From the IMG/VR virus record IMGVR_UViG_3300033463_000034: a stretch of DNA of 33,831 nucleotides. One strand, given 5' to 3'. Of this stretch, positions 1-27,260 are shown in pieces. Position 1 is the first letter of the stretch. Each line of letters opens with the position of its first letter. Under the pieces are notes generated by a model. It worked only from the letters and a program-made list of their open reading frames with translations, did no database searches and was not told the DNA's origin. A program made the translations under genes and the position numbers. The stretch is from a virus. Its lineage: Duplodnaviria; Heunggongvirae; Uroviricota; Caudoviricetes.

Positions 1-2008
1 TTAACACTAAATTTTTATATTTTACTGTTAAATTAATTGTATTATTATTTATTTTAGATAAATCATAATTATCTGCAATAGTATAAGGTAATAATAAATC
101 TTGACTATCTTCCGCAATAATTAATGAATTTTTAGGTACTTCCCAATTAACTATACAATTATTTAAAACTAATTTATTTAATTTACCACCTAAATTATCT
201 GTTATTTCAAAAGATAGGGGTTGTATTTCTACATTTTTTTCTAAACTTTGGTTGGTTGGAGAAGTCCCCATTGCATTGTAAATATAAGTTTGATCTCCAT
301 TTATAATATTTAAAAAATATTCTCCTTCGGTAATAAGCATATTTTTTAAAGTGATACTTGCAGTACCTAATAATTCATCATTATTTCAAACAGAGCATTT
401 AAAAGTTGCTGTATTTTTTATCTGAGGAATATTTACATGATATATGTATCTTCCTTCAACTCTCTGTGTATTTTTATATTCATTTATAATTGCTAAATAA
501 CTATCTAATTCAGCTTGACTTGCGGCTGCCATTGCAATACCAGTTGCAATTTTTGCTTGTAATGCTTCATAATTAATTACTGCCGCATTATATATTTGAT
601 TAATTTCTTTGGTTTCATCTAATACAGTATAAATACCATTATTATCAATCATACTTCATTTATAAGTTAAATTATTATTTTCATCTTCATCTCAAACACT
701 ATTTGTTTTACAAGTTAATGTTGGACTTCCAATATCATAATAAAATAATGTACCTTCATCACTTTTAATAGTTAAATTAATATCTGCTGCATAATTACTA
801 ATTGAAATAATTTTTTCTGCTAATATTTTATCATTTCTAACTGCAACACATTTAACATTTAAAATTGCATTTGGAGCATCTGATTTAACTATAGAAATCG
901 TATTAATTGTAGGAATATACATTTTAGATTGCATTTGTCCACCAATTAAAGTATAATTATTTAAACAAGTCCATCCTTTTCCACCAAAATGATTATAATC
1001 ACTAGATGAAACATCTACTCCATTATTCTCTTTAAACCAATAATAATTTATATCTGTATTAATAGTTTTATTTTTAAATTTTACTGCCGCAAATAATTGA
1101 ATAGTAGCATTTTCATCATCATAAGAATTAAAATAAGTTTTACTTCCTTTTGAAATATATATAACATACTCTTTTAATTCTTCATCTGATAAAGCAGAGA
1201 ATAAATTTAATTCAAAATTTTTTACAAAAATATCTTTAGTAGTAATTTCTTCACTACTATTAGGAAAATCTTTTGCAAAAATATAAATTTGTTTTATATC
1301 TACAAAATTTTCAGTTTCTATTTCAAATATTTTATATTGTCTAGTAAAAGTTGTTAATTCATAAGGACTTCCTGACATTTGATTAACATCTAATTGATAT
1401 AATTTTGTAATAATATCTCCAGATATATTATCTTTAAATTCCATTTCAATAACATAACCAAAATTTCCAGGTACTTTTTGACTTATATCTAGATTATTCT
1501 TGAAACTAGCTCCTAATAATATACTATCACTATTTTCTAAATTTTCTTTAAAATTAGTAATATTTATATCAATGTCATTTATTTCTCTATTTCTATCATA
1601 AAGAATAATTTTATCTCCGTCAACTTTATAAGAACATAAGCTAAACTCTTGATTTGAAGTAATTACATTTCCGCTTATATCTTCATATTTTTCGTAATCT
1701 TCTAAAACTGTTGTATATTGAACATCTTTTTTCTCAACTGCATCAATAATAGTTTTAGATTGACTAAAATCATTACCTGGAACTAAAATATTTACCATAG
1801 TTCCAATAGGATAAATAATATCAGGATTATTAGAAAAAACTTCTAATTCACTATCTTGATATTTAACTTTATATTTTCCTATTGATGAATCAATGTTTTC
1901 TAAAATTACTGCTTGAATAGTTTTATCATAACCTGCATTATTAACAGCATTATTTACAACTGTTTCAATAGCATTAAGAATTTGATTTTCATAATTAGTG
2001 CTATTCAT
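1..2008 (-). CDS. Putative tail/baseplate-associated structural protein, >669 aa, runs off the left edge (code 4)
   Basis: Track ORFs 692..2008 and 386..652 are in one frame, joined through TGA at 692 and 656 (..TNSV-W-DEDENNNLTYK-W-SMIDN..). Reading continues through TGA 386 without TAA/TAG to the window edge. RBS AAGGAG precedes ATG 2008. Function is inferred from position directly after the tape measure gene. Confidence 0.75.
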
Positions 2009-2094
2009 TGAAACATCTCTCCTTTTCTCTCATTTTTATCTTCTTATTTAATTTGATTTTTTACTTAAAAATATTATCTCTATTAGACCAAAAT

Positions 2095-2126
2095 AAAAAA
2101 GAGATAGTTTTTATACTATCTCTTTT
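2095..2126 (-). terminator. Intrinsic terminator at the end of the TMP gene
   Basis: Stem AAAAGAGATAG/CTATCTCTTTT with a U-tract on the minus strand, overlapping the TAG stop at 2116-2118. Confidence 0.75.
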
Positions 2127-5100
2127 CCATAATTCTTTGACTTGCGGCATTAACTAAATTATTTAAAGCAGTTTCAATTTCTGCAGCGTTATGTACATTA
2201 GGGAATGTTGCATCAATATGAACATCTTGTTCAAATAATCCGTTTCCGCTTGATATATCATTTCCATGAATATTTGCACTAACACCTGCTAATCTAGCTA
2301 ATGTATTTGAACCTAATGAATAATTTAAATTTCTTATAACTTCAACACTATCTAAAAGATTTTTAGTATCTTTTGAATTTAATACTAATTCTTTTTGATG
2401 TAATCAAGCTAAACGCCCATCATTATCTCCATTATTTCATTCTCCAGTATATCCACCAGTTGCAAATGTAGGTTTAACAAATTTAGATGAAGATGATGAA
2501 GAAGTATTTATAGTAGTTCCATTTACACTAATAGATACAACACTTACTGTTTCTGATTTATTAGGAACATAAGTATATGACATCCCCATTCCAGTACATA
2601 ATCCTTTGGAAGGAATAGACCATGAAGCTTTTACAGAAACTCCATTAATTGTAGCAGTACCAGGAATAGTTACAGATTGGCCTGCTTCTACTTTTTTAGT
2701 AGAATCAGATAAACCATATCCATAATGTAAAGTTATTGTATAATATGTTTTTGCAACAGTAGTAGTTTTTGTAGAAGAAGTTGTTTTTGAAGATGAACTA
2801 CTATTTATCTTATTTCCACTATTAGAAGTATTGTTCGAAGAACTATTTGTATTACTAGAAGTATTTGTTGTAGTTTTTCCATCATTAAATGCTTTGGCTT
2901 CATTTGTTGGAACTGCATCTGGATTAGTTGTATTTCTTGTTTGTTCTTGTGCTGCAGCTTCTTGTCTTTGTCTTTCTAATTCTTGTTGTTGATATGCATA
3001 AGCTGCGGCCGCAGCATCTTTAGCAGCTTTTTCCGCCTCTTTATAATATTCTATTAAATTTTTAACTTCTCCTCAAACAGCTTTTACTGCTTCTAATTCT
3101 CTACCATAAGCATCAATTAAATCATCATTATCTTTTAATAATTCTTCCATTTTTGGTAAATTATCATCTAAACCTTCAGATATTACTCCAAAAGTAATTC
3201 CTGCAGCAACTTCTAATGCTTCAGTATCTGTTTTATATTGATTTTGTGCTTCAATAATTTGATTTCAAGCATTTGTTGTAACTTTTGCAAATCCTTGATC
3301 TCCAGCAAAAGCATCAATCATTTCAGTTAAACCATTTTTTCAAGTTGGAATTAAATTTTCTCTAACAATTTCTCTTTCTTTTTCACTTAAATTTTCATAA
3401 GTTGCATCATTTAATCTTTCTAAATCTCAATAGAATGATTGAGATAAATTATATTTTGAAGTTTCATAATCATTAGCAATTTGCATCATTAATTCATTAT
3501 ATTGTTCCTGAATCATTCGCTCTTTTTCAGCTCTTAATACAGGATCATTGATTAATGCGGCTTCTGCCATTGCTTGTTGATAATTATCTCATGAATCATA
3601 AGCATCATTTAATACTTGATTATATCTTTCTTTATCAAAATTATATAAACTATTATATAATTCATCTAATTTATTTTGAGCTTCATCAATAGCAGCTTGA
3701 TTTGCAACATATTGATAAGTATAATTACCTTGGCTGTCTCTTCTAAGTCTCATTTCAGACCTATTTGCGGCAGCATTTTCTAATTCAATTCTTGCTAATT
3801 CAATTTCATATAATTTATTTGCTCTATCTAAGTCATATTGAGTTAATCTATCTTTTTCTTTTAATTGAGTAATTTGTTCGTTCATTAATTTTTGTAATCT
3901 TTGTTGAATTGAAATTTGTTTACTATCATTTATAGATTTTTGATATTTCTTTTCTAATTCTTTAATACCATAAGTTTTATTTATAGTATCTAAATATCTA
4001 TCCGCATTTTCATTAATTAAGTCTCATTCAGTTTTTACATAATCCAATCCTAATCCGCCCGTAATTGATTCATTTAATTTTTTGAAAATATCATTAATTG
4101 CATTTTCAAATTTATTTTTAGCATTTTCAAGACCTTGTTCTAATATATTATTAAATTCTTGAACTGCACTTTCTCATTTTTCTCTTGCTGATTCTCATTC
4201 TTTAGATCCTTCTTCTGCAGCTTGCATTTCCGCATATCAGAAATCTTTTTGTTGTCTTTGGAAATTTAATTGTTTAGTATAATTTTCTTGTTGTTTTTCA
4301 TAAAATTTAGCCATTTCTCCATAAGCATCTTCACCAAGATACATTTGAGTTAATTTTAAATCATGTTGAATAATTTCAGATAATAATTCATAAGTATGAA
4401 CTTGCTCTGAGAATTTTTCTTGAACTCTATCCATTTCATCAAGAACTGCTTGATGTATTTCTTCTTGTAAATCAAGAACCTCAGATAATGAATCTCTTAA
4501 TTGATCATAATATGTTTTTAAATCTTCTAAAGCTTGTGCTCTATTATTACCATAAACATTATCTTCTCCATTGTCCATTTTACGAATTTCTTCTAAAAGA
4601 TCATTTACTTGTCGAGTAGCTTCTTGTACATCTGCGGTTGCCGCATTATTATAATAAGTGCTATAGTCTAATACTCTAGCTTTAGCATTACCTAAAATAT
4701 CATCTTCTTGAATTCCATCAACAACACGTTTTTTCCATTGATTTCAATCTCTTGTTGCTTGATCCATATTTAAAGAAATTTCAATTTCCATATTAAATTT
4801 CTTAATATTTATTTCAATTTGTTTATCTAGTGAATCAAATATATTTTGTCTTAATTGAGGAATAAAATCAGAAACTAATTCATCATATCTATCTAAATCA
4901 GTTTGGAATTGTTCAAAATCTTTTTTAGCTTGTTCTACGGTATCTTTATATTTTTCTTGTTGCGCTTTTGACATTGAATTATAATTTGCAACAAGGCTAT
5001 TTACATAAGCCTCTTGGCTACGAATTGCTTCAACATAATTATTAATTGTGCCATCTTCATTAAATAGAACACCTTTACCAGATAATTTTTCTGCTAATTC

Positions 5101-8100
5101 TTCTTGTTCTCCATTTGCAATTCTTAATTTTTCATTATAATTATCTATTTGAGTATTTAATAATTCTCATTGTTTATTTAAATTGTCTATTAATTTAGCA
5201 CCAACAAATTTTTCTTGCTCAGCTTGTAATTTTTTTAATGAATTATCTACTTTAGTAATTTGAGTATTTATTTTATGATATCTATCTACTGTTGCTTCAA
5301 CAGGATCCATTTTATCAGGCTTACTTGATGATCCCGATTTACTTAATCCAGTTCCGCCTTTGTTTTTAGATGAAAAATTATTAGCAGACCCACTAGCTCC
5401 TTTAGTAATTTTATTAATTTTTGGAATTACTGTTGTACCAGGTTCAGAAGTAGACATTCCAAAAGCAGGAATCTCACTTTCAATTGGTTTAGATCCAGTT
5501 TCTCTTGTCTCTGTTATTTCATCAAAAGTTTCATAAGTTTGGCCATTTATTGTTTCTGTACCACGATTACCAATTTTATGAGTTGTTGTATATTGTTTTA
5601 CTATACTAGTTACTTTTTGAGGTTGTTCAGCGAAAGTTACATCATAACCCATTCCTGAAAATAATTGATTAACTTGATCAGTTGTTAAACCAGCTTTTTC
5701 AATCATTTTATTACAAGCTTCAACAAAAGCTTGTTGATCTTCTTCTTTAATTTCTACTCCAGCTTCAAGTTTAATATTTAAATTATTTAAATCATTTTGA
5801 AGTTGTTGAATTTGAGATTGAAAAACTTTTGTATCTAATTTGTTTTCTATTCCAATTCCAATAATAATTTCATCTAATGCTGCTTGTCTTAATCTATCAA
5901 TTGCCTCTGCATCACCCTCTGCAGCCAATTGGATATCTTTAGATTGTTTTACAAAAAATTCACCAGATAAAAATTTCTCAGCTTCATCTTCTAAATTTAA
6001 TAAATCTGAAAAAGCTTTTCTCATATCTTTTAAAGATTTTCAATATTCTTCAGATGCTTTATTACTTTCTTTTAATATACTTAATCATTCTTCTTGATTT
6101 TTATTTAAATCTTCAATAGCATCATTCATTCTCATAATAGAACGTGCTACAAATCCTGCGGAAGTACCATTCTCATCTAATGTATCTGCAAGTTCTTCTG
6201 ATTCATCTGCAATATCAGCCAAATATTGACCAAATTCTTTTAAATCATCTTTTTCTAATCCATATAAACTTGCATCTTGAGTTGCAGAAGCTGTTAAAGC
6301 ATTTTCAAATTGTTCTTTTAAAAATTGAGCATACTTTTCTGCATCTCATTCAGATTTCATTGCTAATTCAAAATTTTCAATTAAAGATTTTGCAGCATCT
6401 CCGCCAACTTCTTCTAAATCTTTTACAATAAGATCTTTATACTTAGATACTAATGCATATTCTTTTTCAGATAATTGATTTACATCAAAATCAGCATCAA
6501 ATAATTTATTAATTAATTCATAGCTTAATTTATTTTGAGTATCTTCTCTTAATTTATTTGGTATTTTAGTAACTAAATCTTGATTTTTTGAACCAAATCA
6601 TTCTTCTGCAGCTTGCCAACTACCAAGAATTTGTCCTCATTGTGTTCTTGTATAAGATTCAATTTCTCCTGTTTTAGCATTTCTTACATCTATACCATTA
6701 TTGCCATCTCATCCTCTAACTGCATTATCTATAGAACTATCAACTACATAAGTACCTTCTCCTGCATATTCATTTAATCATGATACAAATTTATCATATT
6801 GTCAATCTCCAGGATCAATAGTAACATTTATATAATCAGCAATTTTTTGTTGTCATTGTTTAGTATATTTTTCAAGATTTTCTTGATATTGATCACTAAA
6901 TAAACGAATTTCTATATTTGATGCTTCGCTACCTAAAATTGAATTTGAAATAGCCTTCATTGTATTTTTTATTTGAATTTCATTATCTTCTCATGCTTTT
7001 CCTCATTGTTGTAATTCTATTCGAGCATTTTTCATTGTTTTAACTCATTGCTGTCCAGCATTTTCAGTAATATAACCATTTTTAATAAATGAATCTGCCA
7101 TTTCTTGAATTTTTTGATTATATTCTTCTGTTGTTATAGTAAATTTAGATAATTCTAATATTTCTGCGTTTGTTAAAACTGCAGGAGTATCTTTTGTATA
7201 AGTTCCACCTAATTCTTTTCTATGAGTTTCTCTTAAATTACTATTAATTCTATTATTTATTGTTTTTGTTTGTAAATCAAACTTCTTTTGTTCCGCTTTA
7301 CTTTGTAAAGATAATGCTGCAGTATTTAAAACAATACTTTGATTTTGTAATTGTTGAACATAATCTTTATATATACCTTCATTTATTGATAATAAACCAG
7401 TATTAATATCTCTTGTAATTATTCCTTCAATTTTTGCTAATTGAGGATATTTTTGTAATATTTCTAATATTGTTTGATTTACATTTTGACAAGCCTTATT
7501 TCATTCTATAGTTCCATCTTTACATTTTTGTAAAGTTTCTAAAGCAGAAGAATATTTATCAAAAGAACTGTTTAAATTATCAACTGTAGTTTGTAATTTT
7601 TCACTTTGTTCTTTTAATTGTTCAGAAGCTTTCTCTAAAGATTTAATTTCTTCTGTTTCTCTATTAGCAGCTTTTACAATAGCATAAATAACTCCAACAA
7701 CAGCCGCTCCAATAGCTAACCAAGGAACTACTTTTTTTAATAAAGCCCCTACATAAGTACCTAATTTAAATACTGAACCACTTGTTTTATTAATAGCTCC
7801 ACTTATTTTATCTTGTTGTAATATAAATTTACCAGAAGTTTCTGTAGCTTTTTTAGAAATAAATGTCATATTAATTCCTTTTAAATTAGAACTATCTGCC
7901 ATACTATTTCTTATTTTTGCAGCCGTATTTTTATCTAATTCTGCAGTATGCTTTTTAATAATAGCTATACTACCAAATCTTGCAATATTAGCAGAATTAA
8001 TTCCTACTAAAATACCAGGCATAATTGCCTTTAATGTTTGAGCGCCTTTTATAAGTAAGCTTAATCCATTAATAAATAAAGGTAAACTCGTGCCGAGTGC

Positions 8101-10593
8101 TGAAAATATTTGAACAGTTTTTTCTCAAATTGATAAACCTTCATTATTTCATATTTTTGAAATATTTAATAATGAATTAATTCCAGAAAACATTTGACCC
8201 AAACCAGCAATTGCATTGGTAAATAATTTTAATTCACCAATTCTTTGCATATTTTCAAAAAATACTTTTGCTTTTGATTCTATAGTACTAATAACTTCTT
8301 CATTATTTTTAATTTCTATTTGTTTATTTTTTAAACTTTCTTTATTTAAAGTATCATAAATATTAGTAATTTTTATTCCTGCAATTTTTGCTCCATTATA
8401 CATATCATTATAAAGTTTACTTAAATTTGAACGTGCTTCTTTTGTTAATCCTGTTTCTATTTGAGTATTTATTTTTTGCATAGTTTCAATAATATTTTGA
8501 TAATCTTCTGTAGAATATATATTTGTTAAAGTAAGAAGAGGTTCATTTGAAAGGGTATTTTTTAAATTTTTATATGCATCTTTAATTTCTTGAATTCTTT
8601 CTTCATATGACTGAGTATCAGTAGAATTTCATTGATATGCTAATTTAGGTATAATTTCTTGATTTAATTCTTCATTAGTTTGTTTTAATTCTTTTAAAAA
8701 ATTATTATCTAAATTATTTCAATCTTCTAATAATTCTTCATGTTCAGCTTCAGATAAATCAATTAATTCAACATATTCAGTGATAGCAGTTTTTATTTCT
8801 TCTTCAATTTTTGCATTAGCTCTTAATTTAGATTCTAATGTTTCAAGATAATCATTACCTTGTTGCACTTGAACTTGGTTTAAATCCCCTTGATATGTAT
8901 TAAAAATATCTTTATAATTACTTAAATTTTTAACTCCTTGTTTATCTAATTCAGAAGAAACACTTATTCTATTAATATTATCTAAGGCAGCTTTAAAATC
9001 ATCTGCGGCATGTTTATTTCTTTCTAAATTAGTTAATGTAATATTTAAACTATTTGCTAAAGTACCACTTAACATTTGAGTTCCAACAGAACCTAACATT
9101 AATAAAGCATTACGACCGCCGCCAATACCTTCAGTAAAGTTAGCTACAAGTGAAATTACTCCAGTTAAACCATCTATTAAACTATTTATACCTTTTTTAT
9201 CTATTAAAGCATTCATTAATCGTTCTGTAGCAGCACTTAATTGATTTAAATGAGCTTCTGTACTTTGCATATAAATATCTTGTTTTTCTTGTAATGAACC
9301 AGTTGCTGTTTCTGCAATAGTTAAATTCTTTTGAAAATCTCCTCAACTATCCATTAATGCAACTAATTGTGTGTATTGTCTAGTACCAGCAACATTTTGT
9401 GCTAATGCTACTTGTTGATCTTTACTTAAAGATTGTCATTTTGAACCCATTTCATCCAAGATTTCATTCATGGATTTAAGCTCACCTTGTTGATTTTTGA
9501 TATTAATACCAACTTTATTTAATGCTTCTGCATATTTACCTAAAGTTGTTCCATCATCTAAAGTTTTTCCTAATTCTAAATCTTGAATTCTTGCAAATAA
9601 TGTTTTAAATGCAGTACCAACTATATCTGCGCTTTGACGAGTTTTAGCAACTACAGTAGCCAATGCAGCAGTTGCATATTCATAACTTAATCCAACAGTA
9701 TCTGAAACTGCAGCAAATTTTTCTAACCCTTCTGCAATTTCTTCAGCGCTTGATGCTGTTGCCGCACCTAATGCAGTAATAACATCTGCAAAATACTCTA
9801 ATGATTTAGAACCTGAATCAAAATTATTCCAAATAGCAGTCATATAATCAGAAACTTCTTTTGCAGAAGATCCTAATACATTAGCCATTTTTAAAGTAAT
9901 TTCAGTTCTTTGATTAGCTTCAGTATCTGATAAACCTTGTTGATAATAAATTAAAGCACCCTTTGTATAATCAAGTGTAGTTCCGCCTAATTCTTTTGCA
10001 GCTTTGTTTGCTTGAACTGCAAATCTTTCCATTTCATCTGCACTTTTTCCAGTAACAATTCTAATATCATTTAATGATTTATCTAAATTTTGACTAAAAC
10101 TTCAAGCTTTTTGAATTGATCCTGTTAAATTATTAAATACACTTGAAGATAAGCCCCATTTAACTGTATTTTTAAATGAAGTTGCAATAGAATTTAATAA
10201 AGTATGAGTTTGTTTAAAATAAGCATTAGTAGTTGTTAATGCTGTATTTAAAGTACCAAATGCGGCAGCTCCAGTAGGACCTAATTTATTTAAATCTTTA
10301 GCTACTTTATCTATACCTATATCTTTGATACCTTTACTAAACTTAGTTAAATTTGTTACACCTACAGCTGGATTAAAAGACTTATCTAATGCCACGCCAA
10401 CTTCATTAGCTGTTTTTTTCAATGACATTAATTCATGTACTGCTTCTTTATAAGTTCCTTGATAATTTGTTGAACCTATAAAACTTGAAGTGGTCATATC
10501 TTGAATCTCTTTTAATTGAGCTTTTAATTGTTGTATTGACTGAGTATCAACATTAAATTTAATACCATACTCCATAGTTCCAGCTTTTGCCAT
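2116..10593 (-). CDS. Tail tape measure protein, ~2825 aa (code 4)
   Basis: Nine track fragments (10102..10593 through 3589..3885) share one frame and are separated by TGA; at least 33 in-frame TGA were traced. TMP-type N-terminal region (DKSLNDIRIVTGKS..MERFA..ANKAAKELG..; AGTRQYTQLVALMDSW), long helical/coiled-coil body, and C-terminal FATGGYTGEW..GRLAWLHQKELVLN motif in which both W are TGA. Stop is TAG. Not every gap was checked codon by codon for TAA/TAG. Confidence 0.9.
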
Positions 10594-10645
10594 ATCCTTT
10601 TTCCTCCTATCATTATGATATTTATATTTTCATTTTTTCTTCCAA

Positions 10646-11254: not shown

Positions 11255-11282
11255 ATTAATTCCTCCTTTTATCTCTATTTAT

Positions 11283-11311: not shown

Positions 11312-11314
11312 ATT

Positions 11315-16655: not shown

Positions 16656-16657
16656 AA

Positions 16658-17203
16658 TTAACCCCTTTCTTTATAAGGTGCCATTATAATATCTAAAGTA
16701 GATTTAGGAGCACCATCTTTTCTAGGGGCTCTTCTTTTATATAAACGTTGTAAATGAAACCCTTCTCTTTCATAATCTTTCTTTATAACAAGTAACTTTT
16801 GCATGTGATTAGCTTGAGATGTAAATTTAAAATCTGTTCCACTAAATTTCATTCTTACATTTTCTATACTAGCTAACTGTTGACCTAATCATTCAACAAT
16901 CATATAAGTTGATAATATATTAATTTCTTCTAATGATAAAATATTATTAAAATAACCCACTATATATTGTTTTTCAGTATGAGTTTCTTCTTCATTAGTT
17001 ATTTCTATATCTTCTTCTTTTCCTACTTCATAATCAAATAAATTAATTCTAGGAAATTCAAATTTAGGAATTGCAGAAATTAATAAATCTTCTAACATTC
17101 TATAAGTTTCATCTTTTGTCAACTCCATATACATGTCATCAGTTATCTTTGATAAAAAGCTATCATATATAACAGAAAAAGGTGTTGTATTATTATCTTC
17201 CAT
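16658..17203 (-). CDS. Putative head-tail adaptor/connector, 181 aa (code 4)
   Basis: Track ORFs 16889..17203 and 16658..16852 are in one frame, joined by TGA 16889 (TYMIVE-W-LGQQLAS). GAGGTG RBS. Confidence 0.7.
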
Positions 17204-17221: not shown

Positions 17222-17788
17222 TTAATTTATAATTTTATATCTTCCACTTGTGCTGCTAGTAGTTGTTTTTGTATTTGTAGCTTCCATAGGGTTAGCTCTT
17301 CTTTTACTTGTAGCAGCCTCTTCTTTAGAATCTTCTTCTGAATTTTCATTTAATTCTATAGATCTAGATACATTAAATCCTGTTTTATTAAAAATTTCTT
17401 CTCTTTTAGCATTACTATCAATTTTTAAATCAACTGCATCTTGTTTAATTAACTCAACAACTCCTTTAGGACCAAACTCTAAAGCATCTTGTAACTGAGC
17501 TAAAGATCCTTCTTTTAATAGTTTTTTAATAATTTCTTGAGTATAATAATATTCAGGTTCAACTTCACCTAAAATTTCTTCTACAGCTTCTTCATCTTGA
17601 ATAATAAGATAGTTTTTTAATAATTCTTTTCCGCCTCTTGTCCATGATAATTTTTCAATTTCATCAAAAGTAACTTCTTTAGTTTCTCCAGCAGTAAAAG
17701 TTCTATGTGCTCCTGTATCAGGAATAATATATCCAACAGGACCTGTATCTCTATTTGTTAATTTTATGATTTTACTTTTTTCAATCAT
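17222..17788 (-). CDS. Hypothetical protein downstream of the capsid gene, 188 aa
   Basis: Intact ORF, AAGGAGG RBS, TAA stop. The single Trp is TGG. Confidence 0.8.
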   Translation of the reverse strand: MIEKSKIIKLTNRDTGPVGYIIPDTGAHRTFTAGETKEVTFDEIEKLSWTRGGKELLKNYLIIQDEEAVEEILGEVEPEYYYTQEIIKKLLKEGSLAQLQDALEFGPKGVVELIKQDAVDLKIDSNAKREEIFNKTGFNVSRSIELNENSEEDSKEEAATSKRRANPMEATNTKTTTSSTSGRYKIIN

Positions 17789-17875
17789 AATTTTAAGCCT
17801 CCTTGTATCTCCATTTTATATTTTTATTCTTATAAATAATATACAATAAATTTTCAATATTTTCAAATTTTCCAA

Positions 17876-17915
17876 CAAAAAATCGGGGAAGATTAATTTA
17901 TTATAATTAATCTTC
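17876..17915 (-). terminator. Intrinsic terminator after the major capsid gene
   Basis: Stem GAAGATTAATT/AATTAATCTTC (17888-17915) followed by CCCGATTTTTTG on the minus strand. Confidence 0.6.
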
Positions 17916-17962
17916 TTAAATCTCAATTATAATATTTTTTCTTCCCCAAAATTATTTATATA

Positions 17963-19003
17963 TTAAATTGAATCAGTGATTGATAAACTTGTATTTCTAT
18001 ATACACAAATATTATTTGTAATTAATGTAGCAACACCAAATTTTTTGTAAACTCTGATTTCTCTTGACCAGTCTTCATTGTCAACTTCTTTAACAGCAGT
18101 AGCTCCTTCGAAAGCAATTTTAACTGGTTTTGTATTATCTCCAGCAGGGATAATCCAAGCATATGATGGATCAATAACTTTAGTAGTGTTAGTTTCATCT
18201 GTATAAGATTGATTTAAGATAATTACATTGTGTCCTTTGTAATTAGCTAAGTAACCATTATTCCATCTTTGATCTTTCATTGCGTCAGATCTCCATCCAG
18301 ATTCAGGAACCATAGTTGCAGCAAATTCATAAGTACAGTAAATAGTTGATTTACCATATGAGTCAGCTACAGAAACTAATCTATCCATTTCGCTTTCTAC
18401 GAATTGGTTTTCAGTAACTTTATTAGCTCCTTGTAATGTTTCTACAGATGCAATTAAAGCTTTAGCGATTTCTTTATAAACAGCTTCATCTAATCCTTCC
18501 ATAACGATTTCGATTAAATCAGCAAAATCTACTCTACCATCTAAGAATTCTTCGAATCCGATTTGAGCAGCTCCACCCCAAGCTTCAGTTGTTACATCGA
18601 TATATTTTCCATCTAATTTGAATACTTCATAAACACCAGCTAAACCAACTCTAGTAACGAATTGTTTTGCTCTTCTTTTTGAAGCAGTTGTAATTTTTTG
18701 AACGAATCTAGGTTTATCTCCATTTGCTACAGTTTTAATTTCAGCAAACATTCCATATTGATCTAATACTTTTTTAGGTAATACATCACTAATAACTTCT
18801 TCGATTAATTCAAAAATTGTATTTTGGTTAGCTCTATATAAAGCATAGCTTCCAGCTAATTCTTTTAATTCACTTCTTAAAGTGTCATTTAAAGCAGCAT
18901 AACTTAATTTAGTATCTCCATAAGAATATGCAACTGTTGAAGAAGGATCAGCTTTTGCTACAGTTTTAGCTAATGTAAATAAATCATTTTTTCCTAATGC
19001 CAT
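17963..19003 (-). CDS. Major capsid protein (HK97-fold expected), 346 aa
   Basis: Position after portal-protease-170 aa gene; size; AGGAGG RBS; strongly biased codon usage (GCT, TTC, AAC, ATC, GAA); followed by a terminator. All 5 Trp are TGG. Confidence 0.8.
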   Translation of the reverse strand: MALGKNDLFTLAKTVAKADPSSTVAYSYGDTKLSYAALNDTLRSELKELAGSYALYRANQNTIFELIEEVISDVLPKKVLDQYGMFAEIKTVANGDKPRFVQKITTASKRRAKQFVTRVGLAGVYEVFKLDGKYIDVTTEAWGGAAQIGFEEFLDGRVDFADLIEIVMEGLDEAVYKEIAKALIASVETLQGANKVTENQFVESEMDRLVSVADSYGKSTIYCTYEFAATMVPESGWRSDAMKDQRWNNGYLANYKGHNVIILNQSYTDETNTTKVIDPSYAWIIPAGDNTKPVKIAFEGATAVKEVDNEDWSREIRVYKKFGVATLITNNICVYRNTSLSITDSI

Positions 19004-19018
19004 ACTAATCTATCCTCC

Positions 19019-19531
19019 TTACGCAATTCTTTGAACCTTAACAGCTTCTTGTCCATCTGCCATTGTATATACTTTTACAACTTTAAATTGGATATCGCTT
19101 GAAGCGTCTTTTTCTAAGAATCCTTTCGCATTTATTCCTAATACGTTACCAACTTCTAAATCTGTCATTTCAGTTTTAGCATCTCTAGAAGCAGCAGCTT
19201 TTTCTAAACAGTTAGTTGTATAGATATCACCTACGTTAGTTTTGAAAACTCTTGGATAAATTTTCTTATCTGAGCTATCAGTAACTTTTTGAGCAAAGTC
19301 TTTGTAAGTTTCTCTATAACCATCGTATAATTTAACTTCGTTGAATACTAACATCCATTCACCATCTTCAGCTGTTTTGTTAACTTCACCGTTAGCATAA
19401 TCATATTTAACAAATTCACCATTTTCTAAGATTTCAATATCTTCAGCAGCAGGTAATTGTGCATAAATTTGACCAGTTCTTTGAGCTGATAAATGATTAG
19501 GTTCAACTTGTCCAAAACCTTTTCTTATCAT
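19019..19531 (-). CDS. Putative capsid decoration/cement protein, 170 aa
   Basis: Intact ORF between protease and capsid genes, with the same high-expression codon bias and a GAGGAG RBS. Function inferred. Confidence 0.6.
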   Translation of the reverse strand: MIRKGFGQVEPNHLSAQRTGQIYAQLPAAEDIEILENGEFVKYDYANGEVNKTAEDGEWMLVFNEVKLYDGYRETYKDFAQKVTDSSDKKIYPRVFKTNVGDIYTTNCLEKAAASRDAKTEMTDLEVGNVLGINAKGFLEKDASSDIQFKVVKVYTMADGQEAVKVQRIA

Positions 19532-19549
19532 AGTTTAATCCTCCTCTAT

Positions 19550-20263
19550 TTATTTTTGGCTATTTTGAGTATTTATGCAAGCAGAAATCCATGCAGGTAT
19601 AGAGCTTTCATTATTTTCAATATTGAAAGTTGTAACTGTTGAATTTTCTTCTTCTGTTGTATTTTCATTTTTAGCTATATCCTCTGAATCAAAATTAACC
19701 TTATTTCTTACACAAATTACAGATAATTTTGCTTCAATTTCATCTAAGCTATATTCATTAATATGTTCTTTAACATCTTTCTTATCTTCATCTGATAACA
19801 TATAAAAACTATTAATTAAATTATTTTTCTTTTCAGTTTCTACTTGATTTTTAAATTCAACTAATTCATTATATTTACTTTCTAATTCAGAATAAGATGC
19901 TTTTAAAGAATTATAATCTTCTAAAGAAAATTCAGATTCAGCATTTGCTTCTTCCGTAACTTCTTCAGATTCATTTTCTACTTCTGTATTTTCAATTTCT
20001 TCTTCTACAGGAGTTTCTTCTTCTTGTTCTCCATTAGATTCTTCTTCAGTTTCAGCTTCAGTATTTTCTTCTTCTTCAACTTCAGGTTCTTCTATGCTTT
20101 CTTCAGCTTCACTTTCTTCACTAAATTCAGCTTCAGGAGTTTCTTCTACAGAAGTTTCTTCTGTGTCAATAGAAGCTTCAGCAGTTTCTTCTTCTACTAC
20201 TTCTTCAACATTTTCAGTTTCTGCAGCAGTTTCTTCGATAACTTCTTGATTTTCTATTTCCAT
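19550..20263 (-). CDS. Possible nested in-frame scaffold protein, 237 aa
   Basis: Perfect AAGGAGG sits 6 nt upstream of an internal ATG (20261-20263, ..ALEGGKN-M-EIENQ), exactly at the start of the acidic region. Confidence 0.55.
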   Translation of the reverse strand: MEIENQEVIEETAAETENVEEVVEEETAEASIDTEETSVEETPEAEFSEESEAEESIEEPEVEEEENTEAETEEESNGEQEEETPVEEEIENTEVENESEEVTEEANAESEFSLEDYNSLKASYSELESKYNELVEFKNQVETEKKNNLINSFYMLSDEDKKDVKEHINEYSLDEIEAKLSVICVRNKVNFDSEDIAKNENTTEEENSTVTTFNIENNESSIPAWISACINTQNSQK

Positions 20264-20968
20264 ATTTTTTCCTCCTTCTAATGCAAATTTTAAATCTTGC
20301 ATCATAGTAAATAATGTGTGTTTAAAATCATCATCTACTTTACTAAAAGTTGAACTTACTTGTGGAGCTGTTACGCTAGCACCTTCAAAACAAGGTTCAA
20401 CATCTTCTCCTAAGATACATAATTTAGAAAAAATTGCATCATTAATTATGAAAAAATCCATACCTGTTTTAGTATTAGTTGACCAATGTCCATCTAAACT
20501 TTCTTCATCTAATTCCATAGATTGATTATTTCCTTTTTCAATAACTCTTTTAGCTTCTTCGTATTGTCCAGTCCATAAAAAACCAGTAGTCATTAAATAT
20601 TCTCTTGTTATTTTATTTCCAAAATCATCAGTATCTTCAAATTCTTGAAACCATACTTTTGCATCTGGAGCAACAAAACCATAAGGTTTAGTTAAACAAT
20701 TAAATTTAATTCCTTCATCATCAAAGATAACTTGTTCTCCATGATCTGCGAAGTCTTCTTTTTCTTCTTTATAATATCCTACAATAGGAGCCCCTCTTAA
20801 TGTTTTTGCCATGTCTGCGGCAACTTCTTTAGTTATGTAGCTATGATTTCTATTTTCTCCTACATATAAAACTTTAATCTCACATTTAGACATTAAAGGA
20901 TTAATATCTAAAGGTTGAAGATTAATGAATTCAGGAGAACTAATTGTTGCAATTGATTGATGCATCAT
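19550..20968 (-). CDS. Prohead protease-scaffold fusion, 472 aa
   Basis: N-terminal globular domain (KVLYVGENRNHSYI..LRGAPIVG..QSMEL..FSKLCILG..PCFEGA) followed by a very acidic low-complexity linker and a coiled-coil C-terminus; lies directly after the portal. All 4 Trp are TGG. Confidence 0.75.
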   Translation of the reverse strand: MMHQSIATISSPEFINLQPLDINPLMSKCEIKVLYVGENRNHSYITKEVAADMAKTLRGAPIVGYYKEEKEDFADHGEQVIFDDEGIKFNCLTKPYGFVAPDAKVWFQEFEDTDDFGNKITREYLMTTGFLWTGQYEEAKRVIEKGNNQSMELDEESLDGHWSTNTKTGMDFFIINDAIFSKLCILGEDVEPCFEGASVTAPQVSSTFSKVDDDFKHTLFTMMQDLKFALEGGKNMEIENQEVIEETAAETENVEEVVEEETAEASIDTEETSVEETPEAEFSEESEAEESIEEPEVEEEENTEAETEEESNGEQEEETPVEEEIENTEVENESEEVTEEANAESEFSLEDYNSLKASYSELESKYNELVEFKNQVETEKKNNLINSFYMLSDEDKKDVKEHINEYSLDEIEAKLSVICVRNKVNFDSEDIAKNENTTEEENSTVTTFNIENNESSIPAWISACINTQNSQK

Positions 20969-21032: not shown

Positions 21033-22640
21033 CTAAGATTGAGATTCTTTATTTTGAATAGTTTTCTCAGTAACATCTTCACCTTTAGACTCATTTGTTG
21101 GTCTTCCAGCTTCATCATTTGTTGAATCGGCATTTCCGCCATTTTTATTTTGTTCATTAACTCTATTAAGTACATCAGAGTTCATTGTACTAGACATCAT
21201 AGGTGGAATAAATACATTAATTAAATCTAATATATCATTTTCAAAATATGCATTAGCAAGTATAGAACTTTGAGATTGACCTAGTGCAATTTGTGCTAAT
21301 AATTTACTATAACCTAATTGCATTTGTTCTTTATATAATTTAGCCATTTCTTTATAATTATAAATAGTTGTTGTTAATAATTGTATTCTATAATATATTT
21401 TCTTTGGAGTCTTATTAAATCTTTTAATTAAATAATTTAAAAAATCTTGAAAACTTAACAATAAATTATATAATGATGCTTCATCATTTAAAATTGATTT
21501 TTCAAGAGCAATATTACCATCAGTATTAAATTGCATTTGAGAAATACCTGCTTCATTAAATACAGTTCTTTCTACTTTCTCTAAATCATCTACTGTTGTT
21601 GTAGTATTTCTATCAGCCATATCTGCAACTTCTACATCTGCAAAAGTAGTTAAAACATCTATTCCAATTGCTTTACCCAACATATTAACAGCATTATTAT
21701 GAAGTTGTTGAGCTTCATCTACATCAAATATTAAATCTCCATTTTTATCTAAAGGCATTTTTTGAATTATAATTTTTAATAATTTTTGCAACATTTTCTT
21801 TCTATCTAATTCTTGTGCATCATTTAAATCAATGATTGCTGGAATAACAGATATAAGAACTGGGAAATCTTCCCCATTAATATTAAATTTAATTGTGTTA
21901 TTTATATCTAATAAATACCATCCTGCAGTATCTCCAGCAAAATCTGGCACCAATTTTCCATTTTTGTAAAGAATATAACCTTTTTTAAATTCTTTTGGAA
22001 ATAAATTTAATACTTTCATTCTTTGATTTGCATCTTTAAATGCTTCATCAAAATATTTCATATTAAATTCTACTGCAGGTCTTCCGCCAACTTTATATCT
22101 AGAACGACAATATTGGATAGGAAGCTCTTGTATTTGAGTTATACTATCTTCTTCAATAATATAACCATAATAACATCCATTTTTAATAACTTTTAAAGCG
22201 ACTTCTCCAAAATATTTTTTTACACCAAAATTATCAAAATAATCAAGGACTTGATGAAATGTATTTAAAATTTTAGTATCTTTTAAATTTTCATCATTAA
22301 TATAAGGAGTTACCATTCAGTCATATCTATACATATATGCTAAATAACGACATAATCTGTTATAAATACCACTTACTCTATAAAAGAAATTAGAAATATC
22401 TCTCATTGTTTTTAAATCATTTTGGGCTATTGCTTTTAAAACAACACCTTTATTAGCAAGTCTTGGATCTACTCTTTTTAAACTAGAATTGATATCAAGA
22501 GTTGCATCTTCTAATGTTTGTAACCCTACTTTAATTTTTGAAAAATCAACAGGAATATATTCTTCACTTGGAACTCTGGTGTCATTAGGAGTCATAACAA
22601 ATCCTTTCTTTTTTATTTCTTGGATTCTATTATTTATCAA
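21033..22640 (-). CDS. Portal protein, 535 aa (code 4)
   Basis: Track ORFs 22317..22661 and 21033..22316 are contiguous in frame across TGA 22317 (YMYRYD-W-MVTPY). Likely TTG start at 22640 after AGGAGG; stop is TAG. Position between terminase and protease. Confidence 0.85.
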
Positions 22641-22674
22641 AGTAGACACCCTCCTTTGCAATTAAATCAGTATA

Positions 22675-23043
22675 TTAAAAACCGCCAAGATTATAATAAG
22701 CTTTCATAATATAATCATAATCAATATAACTTTCATCTGTATATGGAATAGCTATTAAAATTATATTATGTTTTCTACAATATTCTCTTTTTAGCATATC
22801 ATTATACTGTTGTTTTTTTAATCCACTGTTCCCGCCAAATTTACTTTTGGCTGTATAATGTTGAATTCCTTGATATTCAATTAAAAATCATAATTCTCCA
22901 TCATCATCAAAAACAGCAAAATCAAAACGAAGAGGTCTTCCATTTGAGCTGCATAAATCAGAAAAAGAATATTCTTCTTCAAAAATTAAACCTGATTGTT
23001 GTAAAACTTCTTCAATTTTTATTTCTCCTCTACTAGCTCTCAT
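22675..23043 (-). CDS. Small PD-(D/E)XK / Vsr-like (DUF559-type) endonuclease, 122 aa, absent from the ORF track (code 4)
   Basis: ATG 23043 with GGAGGTG RBS: MRASRGEIKIEEVLQQ..FEEEYSFSDL..RPLRFDFAVFDDDGEL-W(TGA 22888)-FLIEYQGIQHY..YNDMLKREYCRKHNIILIAIPY. The RFDF..IEYQG.QH..D..K..YC pattern is typical of this family. Confidence 0.8.
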
Positions 23044-23149: not shown

Positions 23150-24910
23150 TTATTTTTTATTTGTAAAAAACATCATATCACTAATATTTCGTTTTTTTCT
23201 CTTTTTCTTTTTATCTTCTTCTTGTTTAATATAATAAAGTCCATATTCAAAAGCAGAAAATTTATCCTTAGGAATTGCACGATTACTTTGTTTTAAAATA
23301 ATATTTACACCTTCATTTTCTTCAGCTAAATTTAACATTTGTTCTCTTAATATTGTTGTAAGAGTAAAAGGTAATAAATAATCTCCTCTTTTATCACTAT
23401 CCATATTTTGTCCAATTTTTGTAGACATTAATTTCACTTTTGCTTGACCTTCATCTATTAAAAACTTAATTTTTCCACTCATTAATTGAGTTTGTACATA
23501 AGTATGAGCTTCTGTATTAATTGCCGCATTTGCTTTAATTAAATACATAGCATCATCTTCAACTCCTGGACCTTTTATTTTTTTATAAGGTTCAATAGCT
23601 TCTTCAGATGTTCCACCTTCAACTCCAAAAGGAGGAAGTTCTTCACCTGTTTCTGGATCTACTTGTCCCTTTGTCATAAAATCAATTAATCCAGCTCCTA
23701 AACCATTGGCATCAATAGCCATAATTTTAGCTTTATATTTATAAAATAATTTTTTAATATTTATTGCTTGTTTTTCAAAATCTTCTGCATCATAAGAATA
23801 TAAATTTACAAGTGTCTTTAATGCTGCACCTTGCACTTGCGGAGTAACTTTAAAAATACAAACTTCAGTAGTACATTTAAAACGTCCAACATCGACACCT
23901 AATATATAATAAGCATTTTTACTACTTCGTCCACTATATTCATATTCTGGTTGCAATAAAACTCTATGTTTATCAAATTTTTCTGCAGAGAAGAATGCGT
24001 TTTCTGCATCTCCACTTCATTCAGATTCATATTCACGAGCAAATGAACTATCATTATAAGTTCCATCTAATTTAAGTTCTTCAATAAAAGATTTTTTAAG
24101 TAACTTTTCCATTACTGGAACTCGTCAAGTTCCACCTAAAACAACAGCTTCCGCAGGTTCAATAATTTGTTGAATAAGTATTTGAATTAATTTCTCATAA
24201 GCAAATGAATTTTTTCATCCTGCAGTTGTTACATAAATTTGAGATTTATTAACGGTTTCTTCTTCATGTCTACTTCCATCTGCCAATCTTCTATCAACGT
24301 TCATAGTGGGAATAATAACTTCATTTAAAAGAGTTTGATCAATAAGAATACACTCTTCCATAAGTCCGCCAGTAGCACGTTTACCACGGGAACTTTGTTG
24401 TGCCGCAATAATATCTAACCTACTACCATTTTTAAATTTATACTCAACCATATTTTTACTAGCTTTTGTTTGACCTCTTGTTCAATCTATTTCATTTTTT
24501 AAACCAGGAATTAACTTACAAAGCTCTTCTGCTTTTTCTCTTGCAATTCCCGCAGCTTGTTCCTTACCACCTGTAGTAACAAATAAATGGGAATTAGGAT
24601 ATAAAATACATCTAAGCATTAAAATTAACACTGATAAAAATGATTTAGAATAAGCACGAGGAAATGTAGCATAAGCATATCTATGACGCATTACAGCTCT
24701 TAAAAATACTCTTTGATAAAAGAATAAATTAAAATTTTCAGGATTGTTTTCTCCGCATAAAAATTCAACAAAAATATCAGGATATTCTCTTCAAAATGCT
24801 ACATATTCTTTTATAATAGGTAAATTTTCTTTTATTCTTTCTTCTGATAAACCAACTTTTTTTATTAAAGATTTATTTTTAGATAATTCCATTAAATCCG
24901 CAAGAGCCAT
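23150..24910 (-). CDS. terL: Terminase large subunit, 586 aa (code 4)
   Basis: Track ORFs 24482..24691, 24215..24451 and 23150..23956 plus the upstream part share one frame across TGA 24791, 24482, 24215, 24125 and 24017. Walker-A-like PRAYSKS, Walker-B LMEE, motif III YVTTAG, RNase H-like nuclease motifs ILGVDVGR, IDANGLG and KDKFSA. ATG is coupled to the upstream TAA. Confidence 0.92.
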
Positions 24911-26151
24911 TAGCTATCACTTCCTTCATTATCAGAATAAGTATCTAAATCTTTTTCTTTTTGAGCTTCAACTTCTTCCATAAAAGCGGCATAATCTTCA
25001 TCTTCAATCTCAGTAACTCCATCTTGAGCAGCTGCTTCCGCCTCATTCATTTCTTTTTGAATTTGAATTTTCTTTAAAGCATCTTCAATTTGTTGACCAA
25101 AACCTAAATCTTGAGTAACTAATTTATGAAGATAATCATTCATATCTTTTAAAGTTAAATCAACTTTATCTTGAGGAATATCTGTTGCATATCTAGGAAT
25201 AAAACCATCTTTTTCACACATTGCAACTAATTCACCTACGCTATCAACAAAATCATTTTTATCTTCTTTATTTTGCGCTGCCGTAAATTTAGCTGATTTT
25301 CTTAATGATTCAGATACTTTTGATAATTTTTGAAAACCATCAACATCTCCAATATCAAGAGATTGATTCATTTTAAGATTTGTTTTACAAATTAATATTA
25401 ATGTATTAATTGTATCTGCATCTTGAATATCAAAAGACTCAGTCATTTCATTATAAATTCTTTCTAATTCAACTCATTCTGCAGGCTTATATAATCTACC
25501 TCATTTCATGGCTAAATATAATTTATCATCTTGAGTTAATTCTGCCGCAGTATCTATCATATCATCTTCAGACATATAATCATTTTCATTCATTCCAATT
25601 GAACCATTCATATTTGGTATTTGTCCAATAGGCAATAGAGTTGGATCTATAACAGGTTGTTCTTTATGTTTAGTTTCTGTTGAAATTAATGTTTTATATT
25701 CAGCTTCTGAAATTTCCCCAGCTTCAAATTTCTCTTTCGCTTCTGCCTCTCTTTGAGCTGCTTCCGCCGCATGTTGTTCTGCTCTTTCTTTATATCTTTG
25801 TTGTAATCTTTCACTATCTTTTCAACCAATAGGCTCACCAGTTTCTGGATCAAATTTTCATTGTTTTAATTTCATTTTAGATAAATATCTTCCAAATACT
25901 GATTGGCTAGTTAATTTACTAGGATCTTTTTCATAAATTCTATCTCTTAAAGTATTCCATTCTGCGGGAATATAAGGAACATCCATTTTTTCTAATAACC
26001 ATAGAAATGTACTTTCATCAAAATTATTAATATGCATTGTTAAACATTTTTTACATAATTCTGTTTTAGTTCCATCTTTATAAGTAAAAAATTGATTTTC
26101 ATCCATTATCTTGCCGCATTTTTCACAATAATATTTTTCTTTTTCGTTCAT
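24910..26151 (-). CDS. Zn-finger protein, candidate terminase small subunit, 413 aa (code 4)
   Basis: Track ORFs 25858..26151 and 24910..25446 are in one frame across TGA 25858, 25822, 25501 and 25474. N-terminal CEKC..CKKC; translationally coupled to terL. TerS identity is inferred. Confidence 0.7.
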
Positions 26152-26165
26152 ATTTTCACCTCTTA

Positions 26166-27260
26166 TTATCTACTTAATCTATCTTCTTTATTTTTTTTAT
26201 TTCTACAACATTTACAAATACTATATCATCCATCTTTTGAGGTAGAATTTTTAGAAAAATATAAATTATGTGCTAATTTTACTTCTCCACAACGAGAACA
26301 CCTTTTTCATTGACCCTTCTTTTGCGTTGTATAATACCAATTTAAATATCTTTTAACGGCTGATTCCGCCAATAATTTAGGTATTTTATTGCGCCAAAGT
26401 GAACTAATATACTCAACCGAATGTTTTATACCGTGGTTAAGCTCTAGTAAGAACTGGATCTCCGCATTACTTCTACCATCTATTTTATAAATTAATAAAT
26501 CATAATATAAAGGATATTCATCTTTTAATGTGGTTTCAATTAAATTATCTAAGTCTAACATCATATAATAACAATCTCCAGTAAAATGTTCATAACTTTC
26601 TTCTTTTAACATACTATAATTACATAATAAAGCAGAAATATGTTTTGGATTAAAGAAAGAACATAATCCATTACTTACTGGCATACCATTTTTATCAAAT
26701 GTAATTTCTTCATCAAAATCAGCATGTGCAAATGATTTAACTGCATTTGAAATAAAAATAGGTTGTTTAATTGTATTTTTTATTGTATATTGTTCTTGGC
26801 ACATTTCTATTAATTGTTTTTTTAAAGCATATTTTCTTTTACCAGTTGCACGAGCAGCCTGGTTTTTAACATTTTCTATAGCGACATCTAACTCTGCTAA
26901 AGCAGGCATTTCCGCCTTATCTTTAGGCGAGATGTGAATTTTTGGTGTTAATAATACATTTTTATCATTATCTATTGTTATATTATAAAGACCATCTTCT
27001 CCATTTTCAAATTTATTTACCAATCCCTGATAAGATACTTCTCTTTTATTTATTGTAATCATTCTATTGTTTGTTAATATTTCTTTTTTTTGTTTTTCTT
27101 CTTTATCCATAGCTAATACTATATAATTTGATAATATTTCAATATATTTTTCGGTTAATTGATTAGGAGGAGTTTGTCTTACTATTTCTTCTACTAGATT
27201 TTTACGATCTTCCGCATTTTTTAAAGTATAATCAAGTTTAATTTTAGTTTCCACTAGCAA
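26166..27260 (-). CDS. Putative transcription regulator: sigma70-region-4-like HTH plus C-terminal C4 Zn finger, 364 aa (code 4)
   Basis: TTG start after AAGGAG. HTH-like YKIDGRSNAEIQFLLELNHGIKHSVEYISSLWRNKIPKLLA. After TGA 26307: KRCSRCGEVKLAHNLYFSKNSTSKDG-W(TGA 26226)-YSICKCCRNKK, then TAA 26166. Confidence 0.75.

Follow-up and report, generated by a model that had tools for sequence, protein, structure and literature searches.

Reassignment of TGA to tryptophan in a cattle-gut phage with a predicted suppressor tRNA that carries a second anticodon-like arm

The stretch of DNA analyzed here (33,831 nucleotides; referred to below as the window) corresponds, in reverse complement, to positions 1 to 33,831 of the IMG/VR record IMGVR_UViG_3300033463_000034, so that position x of the window is position 33,832 - x of the record. 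It very probably represents the module for head, packaging, and tail genes in a large siphovirus-type phage of the cattle gut or rumen that reads TGA as tryptophan, terminates its genes only at TAA and TAG, and has its own tRNA with the anticodon UCA, which would be charged by the host. The record is 105,241 bp long, has a GC content of 27%, and lacks a terminal repeat; its completeness is estimated by CheckV at 70%. The window stretch is contained in bovine-gut sequencing runs of several studies.

Reading frames interrupted only by TGA

In the standard code (table 11), the minus strand of the window between positions 1 and 27,338 is broken into many fragments of open reading frames (ORFs); in table 4, the same region consists of 19 back-to-back ORFs. 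An earlier reading of the window, made from the sequence alone, had counted about 56 in-frame TGA codons in 13 genes. We find 58 such codons in 13 of the 19 ORFs, 57 of them at or below position 27,260, and 196 in the whole record. As that reading had proposed, continuing through TGA yields full-size large terminase subunit (TerL), portal, and tail tape measure proteins of 586, 542, and 2,850 amino acids (aa), respectively, which match those of standard-code relatives (the TerL of Geobacillus E3 and Enterococcus H1 is 588 to 591 aa long). The two genes that it had described as absent from the ORF track are located at positions 22675 to 23043 (122 aa) and 16335 to 16655 (106 aa); both are open in code 4 only, and both have PHROG matches.

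Greedy ORF calling for each code table gave a record-wide ORF density of 0.73 in code 11 (154 ORFs with a median length of 111 aa), which increased to 0.925 (110 ORFs with a median length of 170 aa) when TGA was taken as a sense codon and to just 0.77 when TAG was. The joined frames are free of other stop codons: across the 17,512 codons of the record's 40 late ORFs, there are 140 TGA and not a single TAA or TAG in frame, versus 1,378 and 1,627 TAA and TAG codons in the two off-frames of the same ORFs, which excludes chance as the source of the open frames. All code 4 ORFs in the record are closed by TAA (87 ORFs) or TAG (23 ORFs) and no gene in the window ends in TGA, in agreement with the sequence-only reading; to the right of position 27,300, TAA is the stop of each of the 16 plus-strand ORFs that are 45 aa or longer. 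A TGA within the last five codons is seen in three ORFs, which we estimate to be near the expectation for random placement.

Annotation of this phage with table 11 fragments TerL, the portal, the tape measure, and about 20 further genes, and two genes vanish from it altogether. TerL also matches two half-length PHROG families of "unknown function," phrog_15503 (aa 12 to 236) and phrog_24618 (aa 353 to 582), which were probably built from table 11 TerL fragments of recoded phages.

Tryptophan as the residue encoded by TGA

A capsid-protein scan of IMG/VR identified 319 relatives. The best 80 of them, together with 3 loci from named phages, gave 83 loci for comparison, each assigned to a genetic code by the ORF density within ±10 kb. 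The amino acid assignment was made with the 43 clearly standard-code loci only, with Enterococcus H1 and EF1 and Geobacillus E3 as references for the residue opposite TGA; a cell in the counts below is one relative's residue opposite one codon.

Trp, the residue proposed in the sequence-only reading, is found opposite TGA in 487 of the 835 cells (58%). The other residues include Tyr (97 cells), Phe (58), Leu (23), Gly (14), Ser (2), and Cys (1), and the background frequencies of Trp and Gly in the same alignments are 0.8% and 5.3%, respectively. As a control, the phage's own TGG codons face Trp in 689 of 951 cells (72%). Twenty-five TGA sites are covered by at least 20 relatives; at 15 of these the majority residue is Trp, and at 21 it is aromatic. 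In the 19 TGA-recoded relatives, the TGA sites of this phage carry Trp (TGG) in 165 cases and an in-frame stop in 160, and its TGG sites carry Trp in 310 cases and a stop in 94. TGG and TGA interchange in the recoded relatives, which is swapping of the synonymous type.

The four sequence contexts that had been cited in favor of Trp are exact: YVTTAG-TGA and GGT-TGA-RVP are found at aa 232 and aa 262 of TerL, and GGYTGE-TGA and GRLA-TGA-LHQKE are found at aa 2744 and aa 2755 of the tape measure protein. The base that follows in-frame TGA is T in 17% of cases, with the same distribution as after TGG or any other codon; this is the context of a sense codon, and no special leaky-stop context 3' of TGA was seen. 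Record-wide, the true stops (TAA and TAG) are followed by T in 57% of the genes, compared with 22% T at first codon positions overall. These comparisons support the reading of TGA as Trp in this phage.

A tRNA(UCA) past the end of the record

Searches with ARAGORN and Rfam detected no UCA tRNA in the window or in the 70%-complete record. The six tRNAs of the record are all located at its very end, in an array that is cut by the end of the contig. An exact-word scan of metagenome contigs identified a contig, L134, that overlaps this end, and a protein look-up from L134 led to the rumen contig L135, which matches record positions 103,435 to 105,241 with one mismatch in 1,807 nt (99.945%) and extends 4.77 kb beyond. 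A Trp-type tRNA(UCA), for which the sequence-only reading had suggested a search of the rest of the genome, is encoded at L135:4856-4950 (95 nt), about 3 kb past the record end, and five bases after it comes a tRNA-Trp(CCA) at positions 4956 to 5029. The gene order on L135 is tRNAs for Gln, Val, and Ser, three ORFs, tRNAs for His and Cys, one ORF, tRNA(UCA), and tRNA-Trp(CCA). In the close TGA-recoded relatives G001, G003, and G004, a 96-nt tRNA(UCA) lies beside tRNA-Trp(CCA) at the same place of a syntenic array. Copies of the gene are located at L115:6663-6758, L116:1856-1951, and L117:10143-10238. The finding of a suppressor tRNA just past the contig end fills the main gap in the case that had been made from the sequence alone.

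Bacterial tRNA-Trp is characterized by A1-U72 and the discriminator base G73. The tRNA(UCA) has both; its acceptor/T arrangement is 7/5, and its D stem has 4 bp. In the Rfam tRNA model, the UCA hairpin is the anticodon arm, and 22 nt form an insertion in the variable region. This insertion folds into a stem of 5 to 6 bp with a 7-nt loop, CUCCAAA, that is the anticodon loop of tRNA-Trp(CCA). We identified 16 distinct versions of this two-arm tRNA on phage contigs, always near tRNA-Trp(CCA); across them, 99% of the cells in the five-helix structure are paired, and covariation is seen in the outer pairs of the extra stem. At least 12 of the 16 versions were found by a pattern that fixes both loops, so the invariance of the loops is in part built in; no such pattern was used to find the copies in G001, G003, G004, and L135. 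A strict pattern applied to 185,579 species genomes gave one real copy. It lies in a Bacilli metagenome-assembled genome (MAG) that encodes both release factors, RF1 and RF2, and its contig there is phage-like; of 60 matches to cellular genomes, the other 59 were rejected as chance hits. Since that contig is phage-like and has just the tRNA in common with this phage (92% over 106 nt), the MAG says little about the phage's host. We found no description of a tRNA with a second anticodon-like arm in the literature.

The structure suggests a tentative proposal, somewhat more apt to fail than to hold, in which the tRNA-Trp(UCA) with two anticodon-like arms runs a code switch: the UCA arm would read UGA, the CUCCAAA arm would let the host tryptophanyl-tRNA synthetase (TrpRS) charge the molecule, and the amount of the tRNA relative to RF2 would limit suppression. 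With the CCA anticodon as a major identity element for TrpRS, an extra arm that mimics the Trp anticodon hairpin could keep the tRNA chargeable by the host enzyme. Whatever the role of the extra arm, our main reading is that, after infection, the tRNA(UCA) would be charged with Trp by host TrpRS and compete with host RF2 at UGA. The host is assigned both parts because searches of the record and of four relatives (one of which is complete) with the RF-1/RF-2 (PF00472) and TrpRS/TyrRS (PF00579) domains gave no match. The two-arm tRNA bears on how the TrpRS of a standard-code host serves a reassigned codon.

Some relatives add to the picture of the tRNA array. In IMGVR_UViG_3300032038_000012 (L122, L033), the capsid region reads equally well in code 11 (density of 0.93 versus 0.94), yet this genome has the two-arm tRNA(UCA), which fits an acquisition of the tRNA before the recoding. 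The recoded relatives G003 (L116:138-214) and IMGVR_UViG_3300028797_000121 (L129) also encode a 77-nt tRNA with the anticodon CUA (amber suppressor); in these genomes, the ORF density is not better in code 15. The array past the record end also contains a formate/nitrite-transporter-like ORF (PF01226; 183 aa in code 4, 2 TGA) and a pyrimidine-dimer excision-type ORF (PF03013; 139 aa); the two are located at L134:2085-3121 and L135:2758-3458.

Uneven use of TGA among gene classes

The recoding had been described as running across the morphogenesis module. This description holds for 13 genes of the module, but in-frame TGA extends to about 65 kb of the record, and the highest-copy virion genes within the module are without it. 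The TGA-rich plus-strand block spans record positions 6.5 to 61 kb and is followed at 61 to 65 kb by a minus-strand group of glycosyltransferase, Stealth, and RuvC genes that is likewise TGA-rich; in the replication block (65 to 99 kb), Trp is mostly encoded by TGG. The share of TGA among Trp codons is 0.66 in the late genes, 0.83 in the 61- to 65-kb group, 0.20 in the replication genes (P = 3e-14 for late versus replication), and at most 0.17 in the early genes of the window, the TGAs of which probably lie upstream of the true starts. The A share of Lys, Glu, and Gln codons is 0.88 to 1.00 in all gene classes, and this A/G bias predicts TGA for 92 to 96% of Trp codons.

The contrast is also seen among the late genes. 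Six virion genes of the high-copy type (the capsid-like gene, its neighbors, and the probable tail tube gene) have 0 TGA and 12 TGG codons, versus 68 and 27, respectively, in the other late genes of the window (P = 1.6e-6). A late CHAP-domain peptidoglycan hydrolase protein of 473 aa (L130:6992-8413; record 36992-38413, plus strand) has 0 TGA and 11 TGG codons amid TGA-rich neighbors; when the late block beyond the window was searched for lysis genes with PHROG and Pfam, this protein was the only match, and no holin was returned. In the replication block, an ORF for a GIY-YIG endonuclease of 312 aa (L132:16675-17613; record 86675-87613, minus strand) contains 2 TGA and 0 TGG codons.

Such a distribution might be expected if suppression were limited in amount or timing. 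Early, replication, and highest-copy (capsid and tail tube) genes would then keep TGG, and low-copy late genes, such as those for TerL, the portal, the tape measure, tail fibers, and glycosyltransferases, would drift to TGA under the strong A-over-G bias. A two-arm tRNA in limited supply relative to RF2 could in this way leave high-copy virion genes with no TGA, replication genes with a share of about 0.2, and low-copy late genes with one of 0.66 to 0.83. It is plausible, as a hypothesis, that the recoding serves as a deliberate timing gate for the late genes. The sequence-only reading had cited a proposed gating of lytic genes; the one peptidoglycan hydrolase found here has no TGA.

Several observations weigh against the overall explanation of TGA as Trp read by a phage tRNA(UCA). 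Some replication proteins have TGA inside conserved domains (aa 541 of DnaE, the DNA polymerase III alpha subunit; aa 189 and 578 of a RecJ-like protein; and aa 211 and 328 of a helicase), so that some reading of UGA is needed early, which weakens a strict early/late switch. The tRNA(UCA) is located off the record, and its link to the record is a contig that comes from a different sample, though from the same habitat, and overlaps the record by 1.8 kb. Finally, no tRNA(UCA) was detected in G005, a TGA-recoded relative that is complete (with terminal repeats); the corresponding position (L114:6749-6822; G005:C1:105750-105818) is taken by a weak (27-bit) Trp-like tRNA remnant with the anticodon UUA and no extra arm.

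Drift as an alternative to timing

The strongest alternative accepts TGA as Trp but assigns its distribution no regulatory role: once the suppressor tRNA had been acquired, AT pressure would turn TGG into TGA by drift in genes under weak selection on expression level, and the late bias would be a by-product. We regard this account as possible, although on balance improbable; drift under AT pressure does account for much of the TGA pattern. TGA follows the expected expression level rather than the module, being absent from the capsid and tail tube genes and frequent in low-copy ones. The CHAP lysin-type gene has no TGA, TGG and TGA are freely swapped between relatives, and the tRNA(UCA) is already present in the relative whose capsid region looks standard-code, all of which drift would accommodate. 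It accounts less readily for the TGA share of 0.17 to 0.20 in the early and replication genes despite the equal A/G bias, which is what a timing constraint predicts, and for the finding by Borges et al. that, in the Agate clade of phages, certain late gene families are statistically biased in their use of TGA (bioRxiv 10.1101/2021.08.26.457843). The TGA gradient by gene class within the genome can be used to test a timing device against drift.

Host and its genetic code

We infer that the host is a walled member of the Bacillota that uses the standard code. Seven matches, with at most one mismatch, to the Bacillota LexA box CGAACNNNNGTTCG are found on the plus strand of the window between positions 28171 and 31267, versus 0.08 expected by shuffling, and none is found in the late module. 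These boxes, the CHAP domain, the under-use of TGA, the Enterococcus and Geobacillus relatives, and the presence of both code 11 and code 15 sisters are indirect arguments for such a host and against a wall-less one with code 4.

It is very unlikely that the host itself uses code 4, as Mollicutes or some unknown gut Bacilli would, and that the phage mirrors its host with no switch during infection. Such a host would be in keeping with the GC content of 27%, the in-frame TGA in replication genes, and the complete recoded relative with no detectable tRNA(UCA). However, the shares of TGA (0.17 to 0.20 in early and replication genes, 0.66 in late genes, 0 in high-copy genes, and 0.83 at the highest) are graded and far below the expected 0.92 to 0.96, sisters with 70 to 99% identical capsid proteins use code 11 or 15, and the phage has its own tRNA(UCA). 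To our knowledge, Mollicutes have neither a cell wall nor LexA, so that LexA boxes and a CHAP hydrolase would suit them poorly; in its TGA shares and its CHAP domain, the phage departs from what would be expected with a Mollicutes-type host. The sole cellular bin with the same tRNA encodes RF2, although its tRNA is on a phage-like contig.

There is next to no chance that TGA encodes another residue, be it Gly (as in code 25), selenocysteine, Cys, or Ser or Leu inserted by a class II suppressor. ARAGORN labels the tRNA "SeC(tca)," and its length of 95 to 97 nt with a long extra arm is reminiscent of class II tRNAs. However, Gly, the residue most directly at issue for code 25, is opposite TGA in 1.7% of the cells (14 of 835), below its background of 5.3%, and Leu, Cys, and Ser are as rare beside Trp as listed above. 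The tRNA resembles the adjacent tRNA-Trp(CCA), the best Rfam family is tRNA rather than tRNA-Sec, its A1-U72 and G73 are those of bacterial tRNA-Trp, and its 7/5 acceptor/T arrangement and 4-bp D stem depart from the selenocysteine architecture (8/5 acceptor/T and a 6-bp D stem). Nor could 196 TGA codons each have a selenocysteine insertion sequence element. Together, the residue counts, the TGG-TGA swapping, and the sense-like 3' base lead us to reject code 25, selenocysteine, and Ser/Leu suppression. Practically nothing is left of the notion that the TGAs are real stops in pseudogenes, truly split genes, or misassembled ones: nothing besides the table 11 reading itself favors it, the frames are interrupted by TGA and never by TAA or TAG, the joined proteins align to full-length homologues over every junction, the same pattern recurs in 19 independently assembled relatives, and the stretch itself is present in runs of several studies.

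Gene organization of the window

The late genes of the window, all on the minus strand, are described here from right to left. The first (positions 26166 to 27338; 390 aa in code 4) encodes a sigma-factor-like protein (phrog_5767 at aa 59 to 382) with a C-terminal Zn-finger/HNH-like tail that matches HNH/EndoVII-like families at aa 336 to 387. Its TGA at aa 344 is opposite Trp in 24 of 26 relatives, the one at aa 371 is opposite Phe in 14 and Trp in 9, and the third, at aa 18, is probably located upstream of where the protein truly starts. It is followed by the gene for a protein of unknown function upstream of TerL (24910 to 26151; 413 aa; phrog_3314) with four TGAs, at aa 98, 110, 217, and 226, which face Trp in 17/29, 24/29, 31/32, and 29/33 standard-code relatives, respectively.

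TerL itself (23150 to 24910; 586 aa), identified by PHROG terminase matches, has 5 TGA and 0 TGG codons and shows 44 to 46% identity across 95 to 99% of its length to the TerL of Enterococcus H1 and Geobacillus E3. The TGAs at aa 143, 232, and 298 are opposite Trp in 28/36, 27/37, and 35/36 relatives, and those at aa 40 and 262 are opposite Tyr, Trp, or Phe. Between TerL and the portal, a conserved nuclease-like protein of 122 aa (22675 to 23043; phrog_9084/559), open in code 4 only, has a single TGA at aa 52. This position is occupied by Asp or Glu in distant relatives and by Met or Leu in the nearest ones, which marks it as a variable site rather than a counter-example to Trp. The portal protein (21033 to 22661; 542 aa; phrog_2739, E value of 2.6e-78) also has one TGA, at aa 115, opposite Trp in 39 of 41 relatives.

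The next four genes (17222 to 20968) encode head proteins of 472, 170, 346, and 188 aa with 0 TGA and 11 TGG codons; they include the major-capsid-like gene at 17963 to 19003, whose relatives are annotated as major capsid protein. PHROG scans identified the following five genes (14000 to 17203; 181, 106, 325, 194, and 255 aa) as encoding head-tail connector or virion proteins. Each has one TGA; four of these are opposite Trp in 40/40, 35/36, 33/35, and 31/32 relatives, and the fifth is opposite Tyr, Phe, or Trp. The gene at 12962 to 13897 (311 aa; phrog_2729) encodes a virion structural protein, probably the major tail protein, and has no TGA. Two code 4 ORFs from the PHROG scan precede the tape measure gene (10718 to 12880), one of 521 aa containing 2 TGA and one of 178 aa that is free of TGA.

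The tail tape measure protein (2116 to 10668; 2,850 aa) is encoded in a single 8.5-kb frame in code 4 with 34 TGA and 7 TGG codons and matches 13 PHROG tape measure families; its TGAs at aa 411 and 442 are opposite Trp in 28/28 and 26/28 relatives. The leftmost gene (2 to 2008), a code 4 ORF for a tail protein, runs past the window start, so that the window holds the first 669 of its 1,634 aa and 3 of its 13 TGAs. On the plus strand, the divergent early block (27420 to 33646) comprises 16 small ORFs, all ending in TAA, that need no read-through of TGA and are interspersed with LexA boxes.

Relatives and comparison with known systems

Within the same capsid lineage, the 83 loci are divided into 49 with code 11, 19 with code 4, and 15 with code 15. 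A quick tree of the capsid proteins placed this phage in a supported clade of ten TGA-recoded phages, and at least four separate placements are needed for code 4. The lineage changes among three genetic codes over short distances, and this phage is one more well-documented case from such a code-flipping lineage.

In the Mycoplasmatales and Entomoplasmatales, RF2 is absent and TGA dominates among Trp codons throughout the genome. The phage resembles these code 4 bacteria and their phages in the use of TGA for Trp, the presence of a tRNA-Trp(UCA), and an AT-rich genome, but differs from them in its LexA boxes, its cell-wall hydrolase domain, and a TGA usage that is graded by gene class and under the mutational expectation. 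The crAss-like and Lak phages, for which stop codon reassignment was reportedly described by Ivanova et al. in 2014 and Yutin et al. in 2021, likewise combine a block-organized genome and late genes in an alternative code with phage-borne suppressor tRNAs. However, they belong to unrelated lineages with hosts among the Bacteroidota and mostly reassign TAG to Gln.

The cultured phages Enterococcus H1/EF1 and Geobacillus E3 have a collinear packaging-head-tail module, with 44 to 46% identity in TerL and approximately 40% in the capsid protein, but use the standard code (density of 0.91 to 0.97 with table 11). The capsid protein and TerL of phAss-1, of the Phassvirus group, are 53% and 42% identical, respectively, to those of this phage; phAss-1 similarly combines a giant tape measure with a large tRNA array that includes suppressor tRNAs but with no cognate synthetase, and it is found in gut metagenomes, but it reassigns TAG to Gln (code 15) with a tRNA(CUA), as opposed to TGA to Trp (Babkin et al. 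2023, PMC10607447).

The sequence-only reading had pointed to a precedent for such recoding, cited there as published in 2022, and indeed the reassignment of TGA to Trp and of TAG to Gln in gut phages of standard-code hosts has been described by Borges et al. (bioRxiv 10.1101/2021.08.26.457843). In their Agate clade, which comes from cattle, pig, and tortoise and has genomes near 127 kb and a predicted Firmicutes host, structural as well as lysis genes are TGA-recoded and the replication genes are in the standard code; the phages encode suppressor tRNAs, codes 11, 4, and 15 are found among close relatives, TGA aligns with Trp, and an early gene contains a TGA-rich intron endonuclease (bioRxiv 10.1101/2021.08.26.457843). 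The phage described here is Agate-like by this description, sharing the cattle origin, the late recoding, the suppressor tRNA, the mixture of codes, and a TGA-rich GIY-YIG ORF. The Agate genome size compares with 105 kb for the record at 70% completeness and with 117 to 136 kb for the near relatives. Two features set the phage apart: a few of its replication genes also contain TGA, and its tRNA has an extra arm that is absent from the account given in the Agate paper. By its descriptive features, this phage would belong with the known Agate-like recoded phages.

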